64,000 nt of DNA, taken from positions 74,158 through 138,157 of the forward strand of contig VGVQ01000009.1 of NCBI GenBank assembly GCA_016874005.1. Direction: 5' to 3'. Made by a program: the position numbers and the translations under genes. Each line of letters opens with the position of its first letter. Positions within the stretch are counted from its first letter, which is position 1. The notes under the pieces were generated by a model. That model was not told where the DNA came from, ran no database searches, and saw nothing but the letters and a program-made list of their open reading frames with translations. Of this stretch, positions 2,855 to 64,000 are shown in pieces. The stretch comes from Gemmatimonadota bacterium (GTDB lineage Bacteria; Gemmatimonadota; Gemmatimonadetes; Gemmatimonadales; GWC2-71-9).

Positions 2855-3675
2855 CCGAAGCCCCGCCGCCACACCGTCCGGGGATCCGGAAGGTGGTCGT
2901 GGTGGTGCCGAGTTTCTTCACCTTGGCCAACCTCTTCTTCGGGTTCTGGTCGATCGTCTCGGCGTTCAATCACAACTACCGCTGGGCCGGGTTCTTCATC
3001 GTTTTCTCCGGCGTGCTCGACATGTTCGATGGCCGGATCGCTCGGTTGTCGAAGACCGGGAGCAAGTTCGGAGCGGAGCTCGACTCGTTGGTCGATATCG
3101 TATCATTCGGCGTCGCTCCGGCCTTGCTGATGTATTTCCTCGATTTTTCCTCCGCCGGCCGATTCGGTTGGGTGGTTTGCTATCTCTATGTGGTCGCCAC
3201 GGCGCTCCGCCTCGCCCGGTACAACGTGCTGGCGACGAAGGGGCACAGCGCCTACTTCACCGGCTTGCCGTCGCCAGCGGCCGGGATGACCCTGGCCACC
3301 TACTACGCCTTCAGCCAAACGCCGTGGTACCGGGCCTCGGTCGCCTATCTCGATCTGCAGCACGAAGGGCTCACCGTCTTGATGTTGCTGCTGGCGGCCC
3401 TGATGGTCAGCAACGTGAAGTACCCCCGGTGGCCGCGAATCGGCTTCGATTCGATCGCGGGTGTCCTGGGGTTGGCGCTCCACCTCGGGGTGCTTGCCGG
3501 CGCGCTGCTCAAGCCGGCGGTGTTCTTGTTCCCCTTGGGGCTGGCCTACATGCTCTACGGCATCGTGCGAAGCACCGTGCTGAGTCTGATGGACCGAGGT
3601 CAACCGGGACTGGCGGACAGCGCCGATCCCGCCGTTCGTTCAGTGGACGACCACCGTCGTCGGGAGAATCAATGA
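2842..3675 (+). CDS. pssA: CDP-diacylglycerol--serine O-phosphatidyltransferase (CDP-alcohol phosphatidyltransferase family)
   Basis: It carries the motif DMFDGRIARLSKTGSKFGAELDSLVD (DGx2ARx8Gx3Dx3D) and multiple TM helices. It overlaps the psd end by 13 nt and sits next to psd. Confidence 0.8.
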   Translation: MDELAEAPPPHRPGIRKVVVVVPSFFTLANLFFGFWSIVSAFNHNYRWAGFFIVFSGVLDMFDGRIARLSKTGSKFGAELDSLVDIVSFGVAPALLMYFLDFSSAGRFGWVVCYLYVVATALRLARYNVLATKGHSAYFTGLPSPAAGMTLATYYAFSQTPWYRASVAYLDLQHEGLTVLMLLLAALMVSNVKYPRWPRIGFDSIAGVLGLALHLGVLAGALLKPAVFLFPLGLAYMLYGIVRSTVLSLMDRGQPGLADSADPAVRSVDDHRRRENQ

Positions 3676-3923
3676 GTTTTCGAGTGCATATCCGGGTGAT
3701 GCCGCGCCGCGGACTTCTCGATCCGCAAGGACAGGCCGTCGAACGGGCCTTGGGCGCCCTCCAGTTCGCCGGGGCCTCCAACGTGCACGTCGGCAAGGCG
3801 ATCGAACTCGATGTCGCCGCCCAAGACGAGGCCAGCGCTCGAGCCGCCGCGCGGGCCATGTGCGACAAGCTCCTGGCCAATCCGGTCACCGAAGATTTCG
3901 AGATCGCGGTGGAGCCCAAGTGA
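3672..3923 (+). CDS. purS: FGAM synthase subunit PurS
   Basis: The 83-aa product is MSFRVHIRVMPRRGLLDPQGQAVERAL...ANPVTEDFEIAV, the typical PurS length and sequence. The ATG at 3672 overlaps the pssA stop (ATGA). Confidence 0.85.
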   Translation: MSFRVHIRVMPRRGLLDPQGQAVERALGALQFAGASNVHVGKAIELDVAAQDEASARAAARAMCDKLLANPVTEDFEIAVEPK

Positions 3924-53463: not shown

Positions 53464-55215
53464 GTGCCGGTCAACTGGAACCGCCAGAAACGACTTTACG
53501 ACCTCTGGGTGTCCTTGGGTACTCTGGCTCTGGTGGCGGGGTACGCCGTAGCCACCCTCGTCGTCCACCCGACCGCCACCGTCGAAACGGCTTTGATCAG
53601 GGGCCTCGGCTTCGCGGCGTTCCTGCTCCTGACCGTCATCCTGATGGTCGGACCCGCCAGCCGCCTCGACCGCCGTTTCCTGCCGTTGCTCTACAATCGC
53701 CGCCATCTCGGGGTGACCGTTGGCCTTCTCGGCCTGGCCCACGCCGCCTTCGTGCTCTTTCAGTACCACGCCCTCGGCAATACCGACCCGATCGCCAGCC
53801 TCCTCGCGATCCCGAGCACTCACGACGGGATTCCGTTCGAGTGGTACGGAATCGGGGCGGGCGTCGTCTTGTTCCTGATGGCAGCCACGAGCCATGACTA
53901 CTGGCTGTCGGTCCTCACACCGCCGGGGTGGAAGGCGCTCCACATGGCGGTGTATCCGGCCTACCTCGCCCTGCTCCTCCACGTCGGCCTGGGCCTGGGT
54001 CGCGCCGAACCCGCGCCGGTCTACCTCGCGACCGCGGGTCTGGCGGCGGTCCTGGTGGCTGCCATCCATCTGGTCGCCGCCCTCCGGGAGCGACGCGCTG
54101 ACCAGCCCGGCGGATCGGGACCTGATTGGGTCGACGTAGGGCCCGCCGATCGGATTCCCGAAGGACGGGCCATCACCCGGGTGGTCGCCGGCGAACGGGT
54201 GGCCGTCTTCCGCCACCAGGGGCGGGTCTCGGCGGTCTCGGGCGTCTGCAAGCACCAGAACGGCCCGCTCGGCGAAGGCAAGATCGTCGACGGCTGCATT
54301 ACCTGCCCATGGCACGGGTACCAGTACCGGCCCGAGGACGGAACCTCGCCGCCCCCGTTCACGGACTCGGTTCCGACCTTCAATCTCGCGGTCCGGGCCG
54401 GGAGAATCCTGGTCGACCCGGTGCCTAACCAACCTGGCACCCGGGTCGACCCGGTACCGGTGACGCCGCCGGCCGCGGTCGAGTCGGCGCCGTTCTACGT
54501 CGGCTACCTCCCGCCCCCGACCGGCCTCGTCCGGTTCCTGCGCGCCGTGCCGGCCGTGCTCCTGCTACCGCTCCTTGGCCTGATGGTGACGTTTGCCGCC
54601 GCCCAGCGTAGCTTCGATAGGGCGGTATTCGAGTATGGGACGGAGCGTACGATCCAGGGCACCGTGCGGACTGCGCCTTATCCGATGCTCGAGGTCGAAC
54701 GGCCCGGAACCGCGACCGTCAGCCGTTACCTGCTGGCCGGGTTCGGCAAACGGGGAGCCCAGGAGGCGACCGTCGGGCTCGACGGGAAGAAGGCCCGGAT
54801 CGTGGGCACCCTGGCCTACCGTGACAACCTGACCGTGCTCGAGATCGCCGGGGCCGAGCCCCTCGGACCCGGGAGGCCGGCGCCAGCGCCGCGGTCGGTG
54901 TCGGGGCGGTTGGACCTCGTTGGCGAGATCGTCGACGGCAAGTGCTACGCTGGGGTCATGAACCCGGGGCGCGGGGCGACTCACCGCGGCTGTGCCATCC
55001 GCTGTCTCGCGGGTGGTTTGACTCCCCTGTTCGTGATTCAAAACCAAGACGGAACCCTGGTGGAGATGATCCTCACGGACGACGCCGGTCACTCCCTGCC
55101 CCAAGCCGCCCGGTGGGCGGGACGCCCTGTCCAGGTATCCGGTCGGATCGAATCGCTCGACGACATCTGGTTTCTCCGCGTCGATCCTGCCACGATTCGT
55201 TCGGCGCATGACTGA
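53464..55215 (+). CDS. ferric-reductase-like transmembrane domain / Rieske [2Fe-2S] fusion protein with an uncharacterised C-terminal domain
   Basis: The N-terminal ~200 aa are polytopic with conserved-looking His residues (RRHLGV, LAHAAF, SHDYW, ALHMAVY), as in YedZ/MsrQ-type heme-b domains. A Rieske motif follows: CKHx16CPWH. After another TM segment comes a ~230-aa domain with a Cys cluster (GKCYAGVMNPGRGATHRGCAIRCLAGG). The start is a GTG. Confidence 0.65.
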   Translation: MPVNWNRQKRLYDLWVSLGTLALVAGYAVATLVVHPTATVETALIRGLGFAAFLLLTVILMVGPASRLDRRFLPLLYNRRHLGVTVGLLGLAHAAFVLFQYHALGNTDPIASLLAIPSTHDGIPFEWYGIGAGVVLFLMAATSHDYWLSVLTPPGWKALHMAVYPAYLALLLHVGLGLGRAEPAPVYLATAGLAAVLVAAIHLVAALRERRADQPGGSGPDWVDVGPADRIPEGRAITRVVAGERVAVFRHQGRVSAVSGVCKHQNGPLGEGKIVDGCITCPWHGYQYRPEDGTSPPPFTDSVPTFNLAVRAGRILVDPVPNQPGTRVDPVPVTPPAAVESAPFYVGYLPPPTGLVRFLRAVPAVLLLPLLGLMVTFAAAQRSFDRAVFEYGTERTIQGTVRTAPYPMLEVERPGTATVSRYLLAGFGKRGAQEATVGLDGKKARIVGTLAYRDNLTVLEIAGAEPLGPGRPAPAPRSVSGRLDLVGEIVDGKCYAGVMNPGRGATHRGCAIRCLAGGLTPLFVIQNQDGTLVEMILTDDAGHSLPQAARWAGRPVQVSGRIESLDDIWFLRVDPATIRSAHD

Positions 55216-58090: not shown

Positions 58091-60684
58091 GCAAACGACC
58101 GAGGATCGCCCGGTGGATTCTGGCCGGGTACATCGTCTTGCTGGGACTCTCCAACGCGGTCCGCAGCGGGAACCCTCGGGGCGAACCGCCGGCGCCGGAC
58201 GAGCGCATCGTGACCATCGCGGGAGCCGACCGCGAGCTGGTCCGGATAGCATTGCGAGATACCGCCGCCGCAGGGGCAACCGGACTCCCGGTTCTGCTCC
58301 TCCACGGGAGCCCCGGCGACAACGGCGAGGTCTCTGGCATTGCCCGTCGGCTCGCGGGCAAACGACGAGCTATCGCGCCTGACCTGCCGGGGTTCGGCGG
58401 ATCGACCTGGACCATCCCCGACTACTCGATCGACGCGCACGCCCGCTACTTGCCCGCCCTGCTCGACTCACTCGGCCTCGCCAGGGTTCACGTCCTCGGC
58501 TTCAGCATGGGGGGCGGTGTGGCGCTCAAATTGGCCACCATCGCCCCGGAACGGGTGGCGTCCTTGGTCCTGCTTTCGTCGATCGGGGCCCAGGAGTACG
58601 AGTTGCTCGGCGACTACCATCTCAACCGTTCGATCCACGCCCTCCAGCTCGGACTGATCTGGGCGGTCGAAGAATTGACCCCCCATTTCGGGCGGCTCGA
58701 CGGCGGGTTTCTGACCCGGGAGTACGCCCGCAATTTCTACCACACCGACCAGCGGCCCCTGCGCGACGCGATGGCAACCTACCGGGGTCCCGCGCTGATC
58801 ATCCAGGGTGACCGAGACGGCTTGGTCCACCCGGCGGTGGCCCGAGAGTCTCACCGGCTGATGCCTCAGAGCGAGCTGGCGATGTTCGATGGCCCTGGCG
58901 CCGATCATTTCATCGCGTTTCGCCAGCCCGATTCCGTGGCCGTGCTGACGGAGCAGTTCCTCGATCGGGTCGATCGGAACGAAGCGCCGACCCGGGCCAC
59001 CGCGGACCCGGGCCGAGTCGCCTTGGCGGAGGCGCCGTTCGACCCCGGCTCGGTGCCGCCGGCGGTCGGCATCGCGCTGGTGGTGCTCGTCCTCCTGATC
59101 GCGGCCGCCACCTTCGTCAGCGAAGACCTGGCCTGCATTGCCACCGGTCTACTGGTGGCCCGGGGGACGCTGGCGTTCGGGGCCGGCACGATGGCGTGTC
59201 TGATCGGGATCTTCCTCGGCGACATCTGGCTCTTCCTGATGGGGCGATGGCTCGGCCGGCCGGCGTTGCGACGGATCCCGCTCCGGTGGTTCGTCTCGCC
59301 CGCCGCGGTCGACCGATGCGCGCGGTGGTTTGACCAGCGGGGTGCCTGGCTGATCCTGGCCACCCGCTTCGTGCCGGGGACGCGACTACCGACCTATTTC
59401 GCCGCGGGTGTGCTCCACGCCAGCGTGGTCGCCTTTCTGGGTGCCTTCCTCCTGGCCGCGGCGCTGTGGACACCGCTGCTCGTCGGGGCGAGCGCCCTCT
59501 TCGGCGACCGGGTGCTCGCCACCTTCGTCTCCTATCGGAGTTGGGCCCTCCCTTCCCTGCTGCTGCTGGCCATCGGGCTGTTCGTCCTGCTCAAGCTGGT
59601 GGTACCGCTGTTCTCCTGGCGGGGCCGGCGGTTGTTGCTCTCCCGGTGGCGACGCCTGACCCGGTGGGAGTTCTGGCCGCGCTGGGCGTTCTATCCGCCG
59701 ATCGTCGTCTACCTGCTGTGGCTGGCACTCAAACATCGGAGCCTAACGCTTTTCACCGCGGTGAATCCGGCCATCCCGGGCGGTGGCTTCGTCGGCGAAT
59801 CGAAGGCCCAGATCCTCCTGGGCCTCGCCCGGCGCCCCGAGGCGGTGGCGCGGTGGCGGCTGATTCCCGAGGCCATGCCCAGCGAGCGGCAAGGCATGGT
59901 GGCGCGGTTCATGGAGGACGCGGCTCTCGACTACCCGATCGTCCTCAAGCCCGACGTGGGCGAGCGCGGCGGTGGCGTCGGAATTCTCCGATCCGAGGCC
60001 GAAGTCGAGCGGTATCTGGCCGGAACCACCGAACCACTCATCGCGCAGGAATACGTTCCCGGCGTGGAGTTCGGGATCTTCTATTACCGGGTGCCGGGGA
60101 ACGACCGCGGCACCATCTTCGCCATCACGGACAAACGGTTCCCCACGGTGACCGGCGACGGCGCCGGCACCCTCGAGCGGCTGATCCTGGCCGACGACCG
60201 CGCCGTCTGCATGGCGCGGTTCTTTCTCGGCCTGCACGCCGAGCGACTCGACTGGGTACCGCCGAAAGGTGAGATCGTCCCCTTGGTCGTGCTGGGAACC
60301 CACAGTCGCGGCTCGGCGTTCTTCGATGGCGAGTGGATCCGGACCCCGGCGCTGGAGGCCGCCATCGACGAGCTGAGTCGGACCTTCGACGGGTTCTGGT
60401 TCGGCCGGTACGACGTGCGCGCCCCGTCTGCTGAGGCGCTGATGGCGGGGGTCGACTTCAAAGTGCTCGAGCTCAACGGGGCGACGGCGGAAGCCACCAG
60501 CATCTACGATCCGAAGAACAGCCTGATGACGGCATACCGAGTGCTCTGCCGCCAGTGGGCGATCCTGTTCGATATCGCGGGGAAGAACGTCGCGGCTGGG
60601 GCCCGTCCATCCAGCTGGCGCGAGCTGTGGGAACTGATCGGCCGGCACCGACGTTCCATTGGCGCGCACGTCGACGTGACCTGA
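58087..60684 (+). CDS. three-domain fusion: alpha/beta hydrolase - DedA/VTT membrane domain - ATP-grasp ligase
   Basis: The ATG at 58087 overlaps the upstream stop (ATGA). Residues ~1-300 have a TM anchor plus LLLHGSPGD, the nucleophile elbow GFSMGGG, and GDRDGLV...GADHF. Residues ~330-520 are DedA-like (VSEDLACIATGLLV, FLGDIWLFLMGRWLG, RFVPGTRLPTYFAAGV). Further TM helices follow. Residues ~640-865 are ATP-grasp-like (YPIVLKPDVGERGGGVGIL, LIAQEYVPGVEFGIFYY, VLELNGATAEATS). Confidence 0.7.
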   Translation: MSKRPRIARWILAGYIVLLGLSNAVRSGNPRGEPPAPDERIVTIAGADRELVRIALRDTAAAGATGLPVLLLHGSPGDNGEVSGIARRLAGKRRAIAPDLPGFGGSTWTIPDYSIDAHARYLPALLDSLGLARVHVLGFSMGGGVALKLATIAPERVASLVLLSSIGAQEYELLGDYHLNRSIHALQLGLIWAVEELTPHFGRLDGGFLTREYARNFYHTDQRPLRDAMATYRGPALIIQGDRDGLVHPAVARESHRLMPQSELAMFDGPGADHFIAFRQPDSVAVLTEQFLDRVDRNEAPTRATADPGRVALAEAPFDPGSVPPAVGIALVVLVLLIAAATFVSEDLACIATGLLVARGTLAFGAGTMACLIGIFLGDIWLFLMGRWLGRPALRRIPLRWFVSPAAVDRCARWFDQRGAWLILATRFVPGTRLPTYFAAGVLHASVVAFLGAFLLAAALWTPLLVGASALFGDRVLATFVSYRSWALPSLLLLAIGLFVLLKLVVPLFSWRGRRLLLSRWRRLTRWEFWPRWAFYPPIVVYLLWLALKHRSLTLFTAVNPAIPGGGFVGESKAQILLGLARRPEAVARWRLIPEAMPSERQGMVARFMEDAALDYPIVLKPDVGERGGGVGILRSEAEVERYLAGTTEPLIAQEYVPGVEFGIFYYRVPGNDRGTIFAITDKRFPTVTGDGAGTLERLILADDRAVCMARFFLGLHAERLDWVPPKGEIVPLVVLGTHSRGSAFFDGEWIRTPALEAAIDELSRTFDGFWFGRYDVRAPSAEALMAGVDFKVLELNGATAEATSIYDPKNSLMTAYRVLCRQWAILFDIAGKNVAAGARPSSWRELWELIGRHRRSIGAHVDVT

Positions 60685-60698
60685 CGCCGGAGCCTGCC

Positions 60699-61106
60699 AT
60701 GGACATGATGCCGCTCACCAAACCCGCCCTGATCGCGAGCTGGATCTGCCAGATCGTCGCCGCGGTGATCCTCGGCCAGACCCTCTACTTCAAGTTCACC
60801 GGGGCACCCGAGTCGGTCTATATCTTCTCGACCCTCGGCGCCGAACCCTGGGGCCGGATCGGCAGCGGGATCTTGGAACTGCTAGCGGTGGCGCTGCTGT
60901 TGTACCCCAGAACCCCGGCGATCGGAGCCGCCCTGGCCGTCGGCTTGATGGTCGGCGCCATCGGCGCCCACCTCACCAAACTGGGCATCGAGGTCCAGGG
61001 CGATCGGGGGACGCTCTTCGGGCTCGCCGTGGCGGTCGCGATTTCGTCGCTCATCGTGCTGGCCATTCGACGCCGCGAACTCCCGATCGTGGGCGGCTGG
61101 CTCTAG
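60699..61106 (+). CDS. DoxX-family membrane protein
   Basis: The 135-aa product has four hydrophobic helices and a DoxX-like pattern (GRIGSGILELLAVALLL, GAIGAHL). It starts 15 nt after the upstream stop. Confidence 0.7.
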   Translation: MDMMPLTKPALIASWICQIVAAVILGQTLYFKFTGAPESVYIFSTLGAEPWGRIGSGILELLAVALLLYPRTPAIGAALAVGLMVGAIGAHLTKLGIEVQGDRGTLFGLAVAVAISSLIVLAIRRRELPIVGGWL

Positions 61107-61134
61107 CTCGCCATCTCCCGAGGCACCAACCAGG

Positions 61135-61180
61135 CGGCTACCTTGCAGCGGTGAGGCTCACCCTAACCGCGCGGTAGCCG
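61135..61180 (+). promoter_or_regulatory. stable stem-loop abutting the start codon of the Rieske-flavoprotein gene
   Basis: CGGCTACC (61135-61142) pairs with GGTAGCCG (61173-61180). An inner GGTGA-ggc-TCACC hairpin is also present. The 3' arm ends 1 nt before the ATG at 61182, and no unpaired Shine-Dalgarno sequence is visible. Confidence 0.3.
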
Positions 61181-61181
61181 G

Positions 61182-62282
61182 ATGTCCAACTCGCAGTGGC
61201 ACGACCTCGGCCCAGCCGACCAGTTCGCCGCCAAGCCGCTCCAGCAGGTTGTCATCGGCCGCACCCGGATCGCCCTGTCGTTTCGCGACGGCACCTTCGC
61301 CGCGATCTCGGGCGCCTGCAATCATGTGGGCGGTCCGCTCGGCGATGGCCGGCTGGATGGCGAGTACGTCGTCTGCCCGTGGCACAATTGGAAATACCAT
61401 CGGACAACCGGGGCCGGCGAACCCGGGTATGAAGCGGAGACCGTGCCCAGATACCAGGTCGAGGTGCGAGAGGGGCATTTGTGGATCGACCTGACCCCAG
61501 CCGGGAAGCGAAACCGGATCCCCCACGAGCCCCACGCCCTGGCCCGTCCGGTCGTGCGGGAGGCCGGCCCCCTCCGGGTCGCCGGGATCTCGACCACGGC
61601 CATCGACGAAGCCAACCCCCGGTTCTCGACCTCCGAGGCCCTGCTGGCCGCCGCGCTGGCGCATGCCAAGGGTCGCGGCGCGGAGACCCGCCTGATTCGG
61701 CTGAGCTCGCTTTTCTTTCGTCACTGCGAGGGCTACTACTCCAAGAGCGCTCAGGCCTGTACCTGGCCGTGCTCGATCACCCAGATGGACCCCAACGACC
61801 AGATGGACCAGGTCTACGAGGCGATGGTCCATTGGGCGGACGTGGTGATGGTGGCGACACCGATCCGCTGGGGCGCGGCCAGTTCCCTGTATTTCAAGAT
61901 GGCCGAGCGCCTCAACTGTGTGCAGAACCAGACGACCATCCGGGACCGGGTTCTGATCCGCAACAAGGTCGCGGCCTTCATCGTCACCGGTGGCCAGGAC
62001 AACGTCCAGGGAACGGTGGGCCAGATGCTGACGTTTTTCGGCGAGCTCGGGTTCGTCTTCCCCCAGTTCCCGTTCATCGCCCACTCCCGCGGCTGGTCGG
62101 CGGAAGACATGGAGAACAACGTCCGCGTCGTTCGAGACAGCGCCGAGCTCCGCGAGGGCGCCGAGCAGCTGATCGACCGGTCGCTGGAGGTGGCGAAGCA
62201 CCTGCTCGCCTCGGCGCCGCCCAACACCGTGGCTCGCGGCGGCCGCAAAGCTCACCCCGTCAATGGAGGACAGCCGGCATGA
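61182..62282 (+). CDS. Rieske [2Fe-2S] domain fused to a flavodoxin-like NAD(P)H:FMN reductase domain
   Basis: The N-terminus has the Rieske motif CNHx16CPWH. The C-terminal ~230 aa resemble flavodoxin-fold FMN reductases or iron-sulfur flavoproteins (LRVAGISTTA...DVVMVATPIRWGAASS...AAFIVTGGQDN). An extra Cys triad, CEGYYSKSAQACTWPC, is present. Confidence 0.65.
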   Translation: MSNSQWHDLGPADQFAAKPLQQVVIGRTRIALSFRDGTFAAISGACNHVGGPLGDGRLDGEYVVCPWHNWKYHRTTGAGEPGYEAETVPRYQVEVREGHLWIDLTPAGKRNRIPHEPHALARPVVREAGPLRVAGISTTAIDEANPRFSTSEALLAAALAHAKGRGAETRLIRLSSLFFRHCEGYYSKSAQACTWPCSITQMDPNDQMDQVYEAMVHWADVVMVATPIRWGAASSLYFKMAERLNCVQNQTTIRDRVLIRNKVAAFIVTGGQDNVQGTVGQMLTFFGELGFVFPQFPFIAHSRGWSAEDMENNVRVVRDSAELREGAEQLIDRSLEVAKHLLASAPPNTVARGGRKAHPVNGGQPA

Positions 62283-62947
62283 CGCCAACGCGTCGCGATT
62301 TCCTGGAACGCCTGGCCGCCGGAACGGCGGCGGCGGCGGGTTTGACGAGCTTGAGCCCGGACGACCTGGCCGCGATCTCGTCGGTACAGGAGACCTGGGA
62401 TACCTCGTGGACCGGCCGGATTCGCGGCAGACACAAAGCCGTCTTCGACGCGACGGAAATCGAGGACGGCGCCGGCGTGCTCAGGGTGATGATCTGGCGG
62501 ATGCAATACGGCCAGGTCCTCGCGGTGGCTCCCGACGACATGGCCGCGGTGCTGGTCATCCGACACAACGCCATTCCGCTCGCCATGACCCAGGAATTCT
62601 GGGATCGCTATCGGATCGGTGAGACCAAGGGCGTCAAGCACCCGATGACGGAGCAGCCGACCGCCAAGAACCCGGCCTTGCTGTCGAGCGACACCGGCGA
62701 CCTACCCTCGCAGTTCGCCAGCCTGAACCTCCCCGGGATCCTTGCCGCCGGCGGGATCGTGCTGGCCTGCAATCTGGCGTTCAGTCAATGTGTCGGCACG
62801 GTGGCCAAGGAGGACAAGCTCGAGCCGGCAGCGGCCCGCAAGCGGGCCCTCGAGATGCTCCACCCGGGGGTGATCCTCCAGCCGTCCGGCGTGTTCGCCA
62901 GCATCCTGGCCCAGGAACATGGCTGCCGGTATCTGAAAGCGAGCTGA
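62279..62947 (+). CDS. Tat-signal protein of unknown function (possibly DsrE/YchN-like fold)
   Basis: The ATG overlaps the upstream stop (ATGA). The N-terminus MTPTRRDFLERLAAGTAAAAG is a twin-arginine signal. The fold assignment is tentative. Confidence 0.45.
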   Translation: MTPTRRDFLERLAAGTAAAAGLTSLSPDDLAAISSVQETWDTSWTGRIRGRHKAVFDATEIEDGAGVLRVMIWRMQYGQVLAVAPDDMAAVLVIRHNAIPLAMTQEFWDRYRIGETKGVKHPMTEQPTAKNPALLSSDTGDLPSQFASLNLPGILAAGGIVLACNLAFSQCVGTVAKEDKLEPAAARKRALEMLHPGVILQPSGVFASILAQEHGCRYLKAS

Positions 62948-62955
62948 GGTTTTCG

Positions 62956-64000
62956 GTGGACCTCGTCACGGCGTCGATCCCGCTTTTCTTCCTGCTCATC
63001 GGGGTGGAGCTGCTGGTCGCGCGGTGGCGCCATCACCGAGTCTATCGGCTGGCCGATTCCCTGACCGATCTGTCGCTCGGCACCATGAGCCAGTTGGCGG
63101 GGGTGTTCGTCGCGGTCGGGACGATCGCGCTGTACGCCTGGGTCGCCGCTGCATTCTCGGTCCAGTCGCTCATCGGCGCCCCCGCCTGGATCGCTCGGCC
63201 CCCGTGGTCCGCCAGCGGCGCCGATCTGGCCGCCGCGGCGTCATGGGCCACGGTGTTCCTGCTCGACGACCTGGCCTATTACTGGACCCACCGCTGCTCG
63301 CATGAGGTCAATCTGCTCTGGGCCGGCCATGTGGTCCACCATTCGAGCGAGGAGTATAACCTAACAGTAGCCCTACGGCAGAGCGGGCTCCACGGCTTGT
63401 TCACTTGGGTCTTCTATCTTCCGCTGGCCTTGGCCGGCGTTCCGGTGACGATGTGGGTCACCTGTCACGCCCTCAACCTGATCTATCAATTCTGGATTCA
63501 CACTCGGGAGATCGATCGACTCCCGCGGCCGTTCGAGGCGATCCTCAACACCCCGTCTCACCATCGGGTCCATCACGGCATCAACCCGAGGTATCAGGAC
63601 AAGAACTACGCTGGCGTCTTCATCATCTGGGATCGGTTGTTCGGCACCTTCGAGCCCGAACGAGAGCCGCCGGTCTATGGAATCACCAAGCCGCTGGCGA
63701 GCTGGAATCCGGTCTGGGCCAATCTCCACGTCTTCGCCGACATCGCCAGGACGGTCGTGCGGGCTCGCGGCTGGCGCGACCGCTGGCGGGTCATCTTCGG
63801 CCGTCCGGGATGGCGGCCGGCCGAGCTGGGACCGTCCGAGCGACTCCGGGCCGTCGATCCGGACTCCTATCACAAGTATGACCCGCCCGCCCCGGGCGCG
63901 GTGCGAGCCTACGCCGTGGTGCAGTTCGCCGCGGTCGTCGCCGCCTCGCTGGCGCTGCTGACCGCGGCCGACGGCCTGCCGCCGAGCCAGCGCCTGGCCG
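62956..64000 (+). CDS. fatty-acid-hydroxylase-superfamily membrane di-iron oxygenase (sterol desaturase / alkylglycerol monooxygenase-like), 3' partial
   Basis: This ORF is not in the supplied track because it is open to the window end. My own translation from the GTG at 62956 gives VDLVTASIPLFFLLIGVELL... It has the His boxes HRCSH, HVVHHSSEEYNLTVALRQS, WIHT and HHRVHH. There is no stop before 64000. Confidence 0.8.
   Translation, partial: MDLVTASIPLFFLLIGVELLVARWRHHRVYRLADSLTDLSLGTMSQLAGVFVAVGTIALYAWVAAAFSVQSLIGAPAWIARPPWSASGADLAAAASWATVFLLDDLAYYWTHRCSHEVNLLWAGHVVHHSSEEYNLTVALRQSGLHGLFTWVFYLPLALAGVPVTMWVTCHALNLIYQFWIHTREIDRLPRPFEAILNTPSHHRVHHGINPRYQDKNYAGVFIIWDRLFGTFEPEREPPVYGITKPLASWNPVWANLHVFADIARTVVRARGWRDRWRVIFGRPGWRPAELGPSERLRAVDPDSYHKYDPPAPGAVRAYAVVQFAAVVAASLALLTAADGLPPSQRLA

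Follow-up and report, generated by a model that had tools for sequence, protein, structure and literature searches.

We lean towards the view that genes A, B, and C, three consecutive genes at the 3' end of a 64,000-nucleotide stretch of Gemmatimonadota DNA (the window), form a variable tail on a Gemmatimonadales operon associated with aminolipids, each gene with its own evolutionary distribution, and are not a closed redox module. An earlier note on this DNA had proposed that the three are a self-contained unit in which a reductase and a hydroxylase are dedicated to one another and act on the lipid made by the adjacent operon. We prefer a variable operon tail to such a dedicated pair because the presence or absence of each gene varies independently among related bacteria.

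Organisation of the locus

The locus comprises the following features, given in window coordinates:

53464-55215, forward strand: haem-b/Rieske membrane protein gene (Pfam), the first gene of the upstream operon and outside the A-B-C trio
60555-61106, forward strand: DoxX_2-family membrane protein gene (doxX; Pfam PF13564), directly upstream of gene A; start codon uncertain
61107-61181, forward strand: doxX-gene A spacer of 75 nt, with a possible stem-loop
61182-62282, forward strand: gene A, 366 aa; fusion of a Rieske ferredoxin domain and a flavodoxin-like FMN_red domain
62279-62947, forward strand: gene B, 222 aa; Tat signal and DsrE/DsrF/YchN/TusD fold
62956-64000, forward strand: gene C, cut by the window end; GTG start; di-iron membrane oxygenase resembling AGMO (fatty-acid hydroxylase superfamily)

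The co-directional arrangement and both junctions described in the earlier note were confirmed in the sequence. Genes A and B share an ATGA overlap at 62279 (gene B ATG at 62279-62281, gene A TGA at 62280-62282), and an 8-nt gap (62948-62955) separates the gene B TGA (62945-62947) from the gene C GTG at 62956. This tight coupling, together with a terminator scan that placed no terminator between genes A, B, and C in this genome, makes their co-expression likely. The stem-loop in the doxX-gene A spacer was considered as a terminator separating two modules and was rejected: its fold scores z = -1.05 against shuffled sequences, it has no T tract, and the terminator scan was negative. In the ORF listing, the gene C frame stays open from 62788 up to the end of the window, and the gene had rightly been called incomplete. 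Extension past 64000 on the genome contig (L001:6956-8263) located the stop at window-equivalent position 64263, 263 nt beyond the window, giving a full-length product of 435 aa, and an identical 435-aa form is present in a public protein collection (P0124). The next gene 3' of gene C is convergent and encodes a G8/CEMIP beta-helix protein, so the co-directional run ends at gene C.

Predicted products of genes A, B, and C

Pfam and Foldseek agree with the initial description of gene A as a fusion of a Rieske domain to a flavodoxin-fold FMN reductase. The Rieske model PF00355 matches residues 5-79 (51.3 bits versus a cut-off of 20.3) and the FMN_red model PF03358 matches residues 149-295 (43 bits versus 24), within a Rieske-type [2Fe-2S] ferredoxin domain of residues ~5-105 and a flavodoxin-like FMN_red domain of residues ~130-345. 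Foldseek relates the N-domain to the CarAc/NDO Rieske ferredoxins, whose fold it shares (TM 0.8-0.88), and the C-domain to the FMN-binding flavodoxin-like proteins RosB, WrbA, NQO2, SsuE, and ArsH; the AF2 model has a pLDDT of 81, with values below 50 in the Cys loop at residues 185-202. In an alignment of the family (A2; mean column identity of 72% across phyla), the Rieske ligands C46-N-H48 and C65-P-W-H68 do not vary among 16 sequences. Gene A differs from the CarAc/NDO ferredoxins and WrbA-type domains in carrying, in the same alignment, four further invariant cysteines in its flavodoxin-like domain (C182, C193, C197, and C246) and an invariant, basic C-terminal RGGRKA tail. Iron-sulfur flavoproteins (Isf) bind a [4Fe-4S] cluster through a compact CX2CX2CX4-7C motif. 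Gene A instead has C182-x10-C193-x3-C197 plus C246, and its assignment to Isf was rejected; it may bind a cluster, though not via the Isf motif. We saw no signal peptide or TM segment in gene A and therefore read its product as cytoplasmic. It would be a soluble multi-cofactor electron carrier that takes its electrons from NAD(P)H, with FMN and perhaps an additional Fe-S cluster bound.

The wholly uncharacterised gene A family is both very large and very conserved: homologues at 62-78% identity number more than 7000 in many phyla, and its members mostly stand alone. We found no characterised protein with a Rieske-FMN-reductase fusion among solved-structure sequences, Atlas cluster names, or the literature searched, and the papers searched gave nothing useful on "BRAMP". 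Among the loci examined in other phyla, gene A has no universal neighbour; the only genes that recur beside it there, both within one subgroup, encode a 305-aa protein without a family (at 14 loci) and an EgtB-like protein (at 8).

The Tat signal originally seen on gene B is supported by TIGR01409 of NCBIfam (21.4 bits versus a cut-off of 16.7, residues 4-23), with the twin-arginine motif TRRDFL. The mature domain has the DsrE/DsrF/YchN/TusD fold with an insertion of ~45 aa. In the AF2 model (pLDDT 90), the best VIA-align match is 2pd2 (Z 13.6, rmsd 1.6 Å over 107/108 residues), the top nine matches are all DsrE/YchN/TusD-like (Z 8-13.6), and the following rows drop to Z ~5; Foldseek concurs on a DsrE-like fold. 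Residues C164 and R95-H96 are invariant and C216 nearly invariant (alignment A1), and gene B has in common with DsrE/DsrF/TusD/YchN an invariant Cys at the strand-to-helix junction. Classical DsrE and TusD are cytoplasmic, whereas gene B is exported; it further differs from them in its insertion and in the lack of a DsrE model match, since no Pfam family was matched at E <= 0.01. A sequence search of solved structures returned nothing meaningful for gene B. The protein had not been identified in the earlier note, and a periplasmic DsrE-fold protein has no obvious place in a chain from a cytoplasmic reductase to a membrane hydroxylase.

By sequence comparison, the gene B family is a distant relative of the periplasmic 25-kDa thiosulfate dehydrogenase. 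Gene B aligns with NF052225, the thiosulfate dehydrogenase model, over positions 66-258 of 259 at 25.5 bits (E 7e-6), a score far under the cut-off of 300. It resembles AFE_0042, the thiosulfate dehydrogenase of A. ferrooxidans, in its Tat-dependent, periplasmic nature and in this near-full-length alignment, and differs from it in the low score. A doxX gene lies near gene B, much as the tsd genes of A. ferrooxidans cluster with doxDA (PMC6335251). The gene B family occurs in 57 of the 151 Gemmatimonadota genomes surveyed, usually in multiple copies, and one paralogue in this genome immediately follows a gene for a dihaem cytochrome c of the SoxA/TsdA type. Once exported, gene B could act on thiols, persulfides, or thiosulfate in the periplasm through its invariant Cys164.

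Within the fatty-acid hydroxylase superfamily, placement of gene C in the AGMO-like branch held up well. The FA_hydroxylase model PF04116 is matched at about 99.6-100 bits versus a cut-off of 31, the HHSSEEYNLTVALRQS box is present, and the histidine boxes are H112-x3-H116, H125-x2-H128-H129, and H203-x2-H206-H207. Human AGMO activity requires 15 residues (PMC7911779), all of which gene C possesses (nine His plus Q, D, N, Y, W, and D) when they are mapped by motif spacing from the residue list in that paper rather than by direct alignment to the human protein. In this mapping, H182, Q142, D215, N217, Y218, W225, and D226 of gene C correspond to the ninth His, Q162, D233, N235, Y236, W243, and D244 of human AGMO (human numbering). 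Gene C thereby shares with animal AGMO/TMEM195 the same di-iron core, with the essential residues at matching or near-matching spacing, and it also has a C-terminal multi-TM extension that matches AGMP_C (PF24858; 24.4 bits, E 3e-5), albeit below the gathering score of 28.3. PF24858 appears in the precomputed Pfam list for the gene C product and for most of its homologues, some of which JGI names alkylglycerol monooxygenase. What distinguishes gene C from the animal enzyme is its bacterial origin, its position beside an aminolipid operon, and a pterin/ether activity that is putative. A sequence search of solved structures found nothing for gene C.

As the earlier note said of OlsE-type enzymes, gene C belongs to the same Pfam superfamily as Rhizobium OlsE, and olsB/olsA-type genes lie in its neighbourhood; however, its score against the OlsE model NF052566 is 64.0-64.6 bits versus an equivalog cut-off of 475, and only the His-box core is matched (model positions 66-263, residues 43-240). 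We therefore rejected gene C as an OlsE. The protein would be a bacterial AGMO-type di-iron oxygenase, hydroxylating an alkyl carbon beside an ether or other heteroatom and thus leading to cleavage or tailoring.

Distribution and gene context

Across the phylum (151 Gemmatimonadota genomes), gene A is found in 32 genomes and full-length gene C (E <= 1e-90) in 8, with a ninth gene C copy (G140) cut by a contig end. The tallies over these 151 genomes presumably include the unpublished genomes G057 and G097, and no individual claim rests on either. Genes A and C occur together in only four genomes, leaving 28 of the 32 gene A genomes without gene C. They are adjacent in G000 and G148, both of the window's genus, and lie on separate contigs in G088 and G056, while gene C is present without gene A in G010, G136, G099, and G091. 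Two other members of the window's genus, G126 and G147, retain a locus reduced to OlsA, gene B, and the G8 gene.

Gene A neighbourhoods were compared at 80 loci, of which 27 were informative within the window's narrow Gemmatimonadales clade and about 40 were informative in other lineages. Synteny of the three genes elsewhere had been set beforehand as a check on the module, and it proved absent outside this clade: neither gene B nor gene C lies near gene A at any of the ~40 informative loci. Inside the clade, gene C is found downstream of gene A at only 15 of the 27 loci, and the interval between them variably holds gene B, one of its paralogues, or 2.7 kb of DNA with a Crp gene, or shrinks to a gap of only 8 nt (L013); at five loci, gene A is followed directly by the convergent G8 gene. 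In a sister family, gene C is situated in the order acyl-CoA dehydrogenase, gene C, ETF-beta, ETF-alpha, with a divergent SDR and with none of the window's genes nearby.

According to Pfam, the product of the operon's first gene combines a haem-b TM domain of the ferric-reductase type with a Rieske domain and a Cys-rich C-terminal domain. Within the window's family, every one of the 13 genomes that carry this haem-b/Rieske gene (G000 included) also carries gene A. The two genes directly adjoin one another, with no Ols genes between, in L088 and L089 (one genus), and bracket the Ols block in L090 and L091. The link between them draws on six genera of one family, and the haem-b/Rieske gene is absent from four of the five gene A-carrying genomes of other phyla. 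The doxX gene adjoins gene A in many relatives and adjoins gene B in L029. In this lineage, gene A would work with the operon's haem-b/Rieske membrane protein, by analogy with the cytosolic flavin reductase that feeds the haem-b protein MsrQ. Gene C would be optional and not reliant on gene A for electrons, and gene A may serve it opportunistically in this genome.

Alternative readings and implications

Less probable than a variable operon tail, though a possibility we take seriously, is that gene C is a true AGMO orthologue, unlinked to gene A, gene B, or the aminolipid operon, which in a pterin-dependent reaction splits scavenged ether lipids of the 1-O-alkylglycerol type, releasing a fatty aldehyde destined for beta-oxidation. 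Its full complement of AGMO-essential residues and its AGMO-like C-terminal TM region are consistent with this function, as is the sister-family arrangement, in which acyl-CoA dehydrogenase and ETF genes flank gene C and a divergent SDR accompanies them. This genome also encodes a pterin-4a-carbinolamine dehydratase (PF01329) and, in our analysis, no aromatic amino-acid hydroxylase. However, the dehydratase was discarded as a marker of pterin dependence because it is present in 135 of the 151 genomes of the phylum and is hence unspecific. The only characterised bacterial AGMO-like relative known to us is PRUB680. This Pseudoalteromonas rubra protein, which we compared with gene C by description only, is likewise an AGMO-like membrane oxygenase, but it cyclises prodigiosin rather than cleaving an ether and is encoded apart from its pathway genes (PMC6667630). 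Gene C, for its part, is not accompanied by prodiginine genes.

The proposal in the earlier note that gene A is a dedicated NAD(P)H-to-FMN-to-[2Fe-2S] reductase for gene C, and that gene C hydroxylates or cleaves the aminolipid of the adjacent olsB/olsA-type operon, now appears improbable. Rieske ferredoxins are classic electron donors to oxygenases, and the gene A N-domain resembles the ferredoxins that serve them; gene C, as a di-iron enzyme, needs two electrons per turnover. The proposal also draws on the tight, co-directional coupling of the three genes, on the clade loci that have gene C downstream of gene A (directly adjacent in L013), and on OlsE being the sole NCBIfam match for gene C. 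Set against this are the 28 genomes with gene A but without gene C, the four with gene C but without gene A, and the two in which both occur on different contigs, as well as the lack of gene C at every one of the ~40 informative gene A loci outside the clade and at about half of the otherwise complete operons within it. The OlsE score falls far below its cut-off, and to our knowledge ornithine and related aminolipids contain no ether bond of the kind found in AGMO substrates. Moreover, animal AGMO uses tetrahydrobiopterin and not a protein donor (PMC9192799).

We consider it similarly unlikely that cytoplasmic gene A passes electrons through the haem-b/Rieske protein to Tat-exported gene B, possibly together with DoxX, so that thiols or persulfides are reduced in the periplasm, with gene C as unrelated cargo. 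The precedent is MsrQ, which is fed by a cytosolic NADH oxidoreductase and passes electrons to periplasmic MsrP (PMC12525009). Here too, genes for a cytosolic flavoprotein and a Tat-exported protein accompany one for a haem-b membrane protein of the ferric-reductase type: the haem-b/Rieske gene and gene A are adjacent or co-occur, gene B is periplasmic with an invariant Cys, and DoxX adjoins one or the other. Unlike MsrQ, however, the membrane protein has Rieske and Cys-rich domains of its own and its electron transfer is putative, and the exported partner is a DsrE-fold protein rather than a molybdoenzyme. The gene pairs in L088 and L089 have no gene B near them, G126 and G147 keep gene B without gene A or the haem-b/Rieske gene, and gene B is one of a multi-copy family found in other contexts as well, all of which argue against such a chain. 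Most speculative, and the least probable of the readings, is that gene A and the haem-b/Rieske/Cys-rich protein form an undescribed NOX/MsrQ-like transmembrane electron conduit, with gene A as a three-cofactor carrier (Rieske, FMN, and a new four-Cys site). The conduit would drive lipid and thiol chemistry in the membrane or periplasm and, in this genome, would replace pterin as the donor to the AGMO-type enzyme.

Several observations also count against the variable operon tail that we favour, namely the tight A-B-C coupling, the role of Rieske ferredoxins as oxygenase donors, the 15 clade loci with gene C downstream, and the short A-C gap in L013. The restriction of the link between gene A and the haem-b/Rieske gene to one family, and the low NF052225 score of gene B, are further points of this kind.

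Genes A, B, and C are each an uncharacterised member of a known superfamily, and nothing in these results overturns current knowledge. The attractive story of a private reductase for a lipid hydroxylase is removed as unsupported. In its place stand three leads, of which the first is the large and highly conserved gene A family, with the haem-b/Rieske membrane protein as its recurring partner in this lineage. A Tat-exported, multi-copy family with the DsrE fold exists in Gemmatimonadales, with one paralogue located beside a TsdA-type cytochrome. Finally, because gene C keeps all of the AGMO-essential residues and stands in a beta-oxidation gene context in one family, bacterial ether-lipid cleavage becomes testable.

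Gene layout and transcription

Three co-directional genes follow the aminolipid (Ols) operon in the open reading frames of the window:

61182-62282, plus strand: gene A, Rieske/FMN_red flavoprotein, 366 aa
62279-62947, plus strand: gene B, Tat-exported DsrE-fold protein, 222 aa
62956 (GTG start) to a stop at window-equivalent 64263, plus strand: gene C, AGMO-like di-iron oxygenase, 435 aa, read on in the genome contig

The earlier note's description of this run, with an ATGA overlap between A and B and an 8-nt gap (62948-62955) between B and C, was confirmed on the window sequence, as was its remark that C is incomplete there: extension beyond 64000 reaches the stop. A public protein collection holds an identical 435-aa form of C (P0124). 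The window occupies positions 74158-138157 of contig C9 (67.5% G+C) in the source genome (G000; ~3.9 Mb), and the closest homologues are found in MAGs assigned to Gemmatimonadales and Gemmatimonadota. Because the next gene, encoding a G8/CEMIP beta-helix protein (G8), is convergent, the co-directional run ends with C. Scanning found no sigma-70-like promoter and only two terminator-like sites, at chance level and both within coding sequence. Against shuffled sequences, the fold of the spacer between A and the upstream doxX gene did not stand out (z = -1.05). In the source genome A, B, and C are likely co-transcribed with the upstream operon, which is the main argument for some functional link there.

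Properties of the three proteins

The earlier assignment of Rieske and FMN reductase domains to A proved right: both match in Pfam (Rieske, 51.3 bits; FMN_red, 43 bits) and the folds agree, the N-terminal domain resembling Rieske ferredoxins of dioxygenase systems (TM 0.8-0.88) and the C-terminal domain matching RosB, WrbA, NQO2, SsuE, and ArsH in structure comparison. Aligning 16 homologues drawn from Gemmatimonadota, Acidobacteriota, Myxococcota, Planctomycetota, Nitrospirales, and Alpha- and Gammaproteobacteria gave a mean column identity of 72% and showed three invariant features: both pairs of Rieske ligands (C46/H48 and C65/H68), four more cysteines in the flavodoxin-like domain (C182, C193, C197, and C246), and a C-terminal RGGRKA tail, the last invariant across phyla. 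The RGGRKA motif lies within a disordered tail (residues 352-366; window 62236-62282), with a possible role in docking or membrane contact. The AF2 model of A has a pLDDT of 81, falling below 50 in the Cys loop 185-202, as would be expected of a cofactor-requiring loop. We infer that A uses NAD(P)H, binds FMN, and may have a second Fe-S cluster. Its family is large (7106 of 8000 scored candidates at E <= 0.001); homologues bear only generic names in their source databases, and a paper-library search found no characterised member.

The Tat signal of B scores above cut-off, and no Pfam family was found for B. Its match to NF052225, the 25-kDa periplasmic thiosulfate dehydrogenase, is nearly end-to-end and weak (25.5 bits, E 7e-6, below the cut-off of 300); in A. 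ferrooxidans this enzyme is AFE_0042, with genes clustered with doxDA and a rhodanese (PMC6335251). The AF2 model from 28 homologues (pLDDT 90) adopts the DsrE/YchN/TusD fold (against 2pd2, Z 13.6, rmsd 1.6 A, 107/108 residues); the best nine structural matches all have this fold, well apart from the remainder, and Foldseek concurs on the DsrE type. C164, invariant among the 28 homologues and modeled at a strand-to-helix junction, would be the counterpart of the DsrE/TusD active Cys, and C216 is nearly invariant. In a whole-genome survey of 151 Gemmatimonadota genomes, whose tallies presumably include G057 and G097 (flagged unpublished; no individual claim rests on either), the B family occurs in 57, with several copies in many Gemmatimonadales and three in the source genome. 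On contig 19, a dihaem cytochrome c gene is followed immediately downstream by a B paralogue (27% identity):

L093 4995-6652 (G000:C19:20722-22379), minus strand: B paralogue and SoxA/TsdA-type cytochrome c, with a PAS histidine kinase beyond

The two may be a periplasmic thiosulfate-oxidation pair, and their proximity is an independent pointer to periplasmic sulfur chemistry. The closest in-genome paralogue (41% identity; L092 5001-5666, on G000:C16) adjoins a 221-aa ORF without a family and is near a metallophosphoesterase and a CusB/HlyD/outer-membrane efflux pair (L092 2989-8719).

C scores 99.6 bits on Pfam FA_hydroxylase and also hits the C-terminal domain of AGMO (E 3e-5), under the gathering score; some homologues are named alkylglycerol monooxygenase by JGI, and NCBI labels them sterol desaturase family proteins. 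Human AGMO requires nine His together with Q162, D233, N235, Y236, W243, and D244 (PMC7911779). Motif mapping, rather than alignment to the human protein itself, found counterparts in C for 15 of 15 (H112, H116, H125, H128, H129, Q142, H182, H203, H206, H207, D215, N217, Y218, W225, and D226), with identical spacing for the first six and the others off by one or two. As an OlsE, C was rejected (64 bits against an equivalog cut-off of 475). The earlier suggestion of an AGMO-like branch for C therefore holds. To our knowledge, PRUB680 is the sole characterised bacterial relative. It cyclises prodigiosin (PMC6667630).

Occurrence of the three genes across loci and genomes

We took 80 loci around A homologues and mapped where the operon proteins of the window occur in each. 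In ~30 close Gemmatimonadales loci (A identity 69-78%), A stands at the end of an operon ordered haem-b/Rieske gene, OlsB, OlsA, DinB, TANGO2, hydrolase-DedA fusion, usually DoxX, and A, and the gene content 3' of A varies.

Arrangements downstream of A in the compared loci (B', B paralogue)
A, then G8 directly: L004-L008
A-B-G8: L002, L042
A-C-G8: L013, L015
A-B-C: L011, L014, L019
A-B-B'-C (B' confirmed only in L028): L016-L018, L028
A-B-(2.7 kb)-C: L022, L024, L066

By our count, C is downstream of A in 15 of 27 informative close-clade loci. The 2.7-kb stretch in L022 includes a Crp-type regulator. Between B and C, L028 has a diverged second B copy (3151-3855; 42% identity to B), and L016-L018 show a same-size gap. 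Outside the close clade, B, C, and Ols genes were absent near A in all of ~40 informative loci. The three genes are not syntenic beyond one clade, an outcome that the earlier note had listed as refuting its proposal. Gemmatimonadaceae-type loci place a 305-aa protein without a Pfam/NCBIfam family beside A (~1.0-1.2 kb downstream of A in L034-L036, L060, L073, and L075), and past it lies an EgtB-like gene (DinB_2 and FGE-sulfatase domains).

Among the 151 genomes, A is present in 32 and full-length C in 8 (a ninth copy is truncated by a contig end). They occur together in four, as neighbours only in the congeners G000 and G148 and on separate contigs in G088 and G056, and four others (G010, G136, G099, and G091) have C without A. 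This distribution does not support the dedicated reductase-hydroxylase module, acting on the operon's aminolipid, that the earlier note had proposed. In a sister family, C lies in a lipid-catabolic context with none of the window's genes nearby:

L082 6124-13302 (also L084, L085, L086): acyl-CoA dehydrogenase, AGMO-like gene, ETF-beta, ETF-alpha, and a divergent short-chain dehydrogenase

Two congeners, G126 and G147, are without the entire operon (A, C, and the haem-b/Rieske gene among the missing genes) and retain an OlsA-like acyltransferase gene followed immediately by a B orthologue and convergent G8:

L094 7130-12091 (G126) and L095 7130-12109 (G147): OlsA-like, B orthologue, G8

These differing occurrences indicate three different histories for A, B, and C.

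The partner of A and the operon tail

The haem-b/Rieske/Cys-rich gene at the operon head (window 53464-55215, plus strand) occurs in 16 of the 151 genomes, and all 13 window-family genomes that carry it, G000 counted, also have A. It is the only recurrent partner of A that we found and is lineage-limited; among A-carrying genomes from other phyla it occurs in one of five, 32 kb from A. One genus has a compact three-gene unit, with no Ols genes between its ends:

L088 7975-10949 (G129:C79) and L089 867-3757 (G033:C204): haem-b/Rieske gene, separate ORF for its C-terminal Cys-rich part, then A immediately after

In the window the haem-b/Rieske and Cys-rich parts are fused into one 583-aa protein, and in another genus the haem-b/Rieske gene and A bracket the Ols block (L090, L091). 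The MsrQ system, in which a cytosolic NADH oxidoreductase serves a haem-b membrane protein and, through it, periplasmic MsrP (PMC12525009), offers a mechanistic precedent for A acting with the haem-b/Rieske membrane protein.

Animal AGMO works with tetrahydrobiopterin as its cofactor (PMC9192799) rather than with a protein reductase. That A reduces C opportunistically in the source organism seems improbable to us. All three proteins belong to known superfamilies and are themselves uncharacterised. We lean, by a narrow preference, toward a variable operon tail: A would act as an electron carrier of wide occurrence, serving the haem-b/Rieske membrane protein of the operon in this lineage, B would be a periplasmic DsrE-fold protein of sulfur or thiol chemistry, and C would be an AGMO-type oxygenase that is optional and has an electron supply not bound to A.
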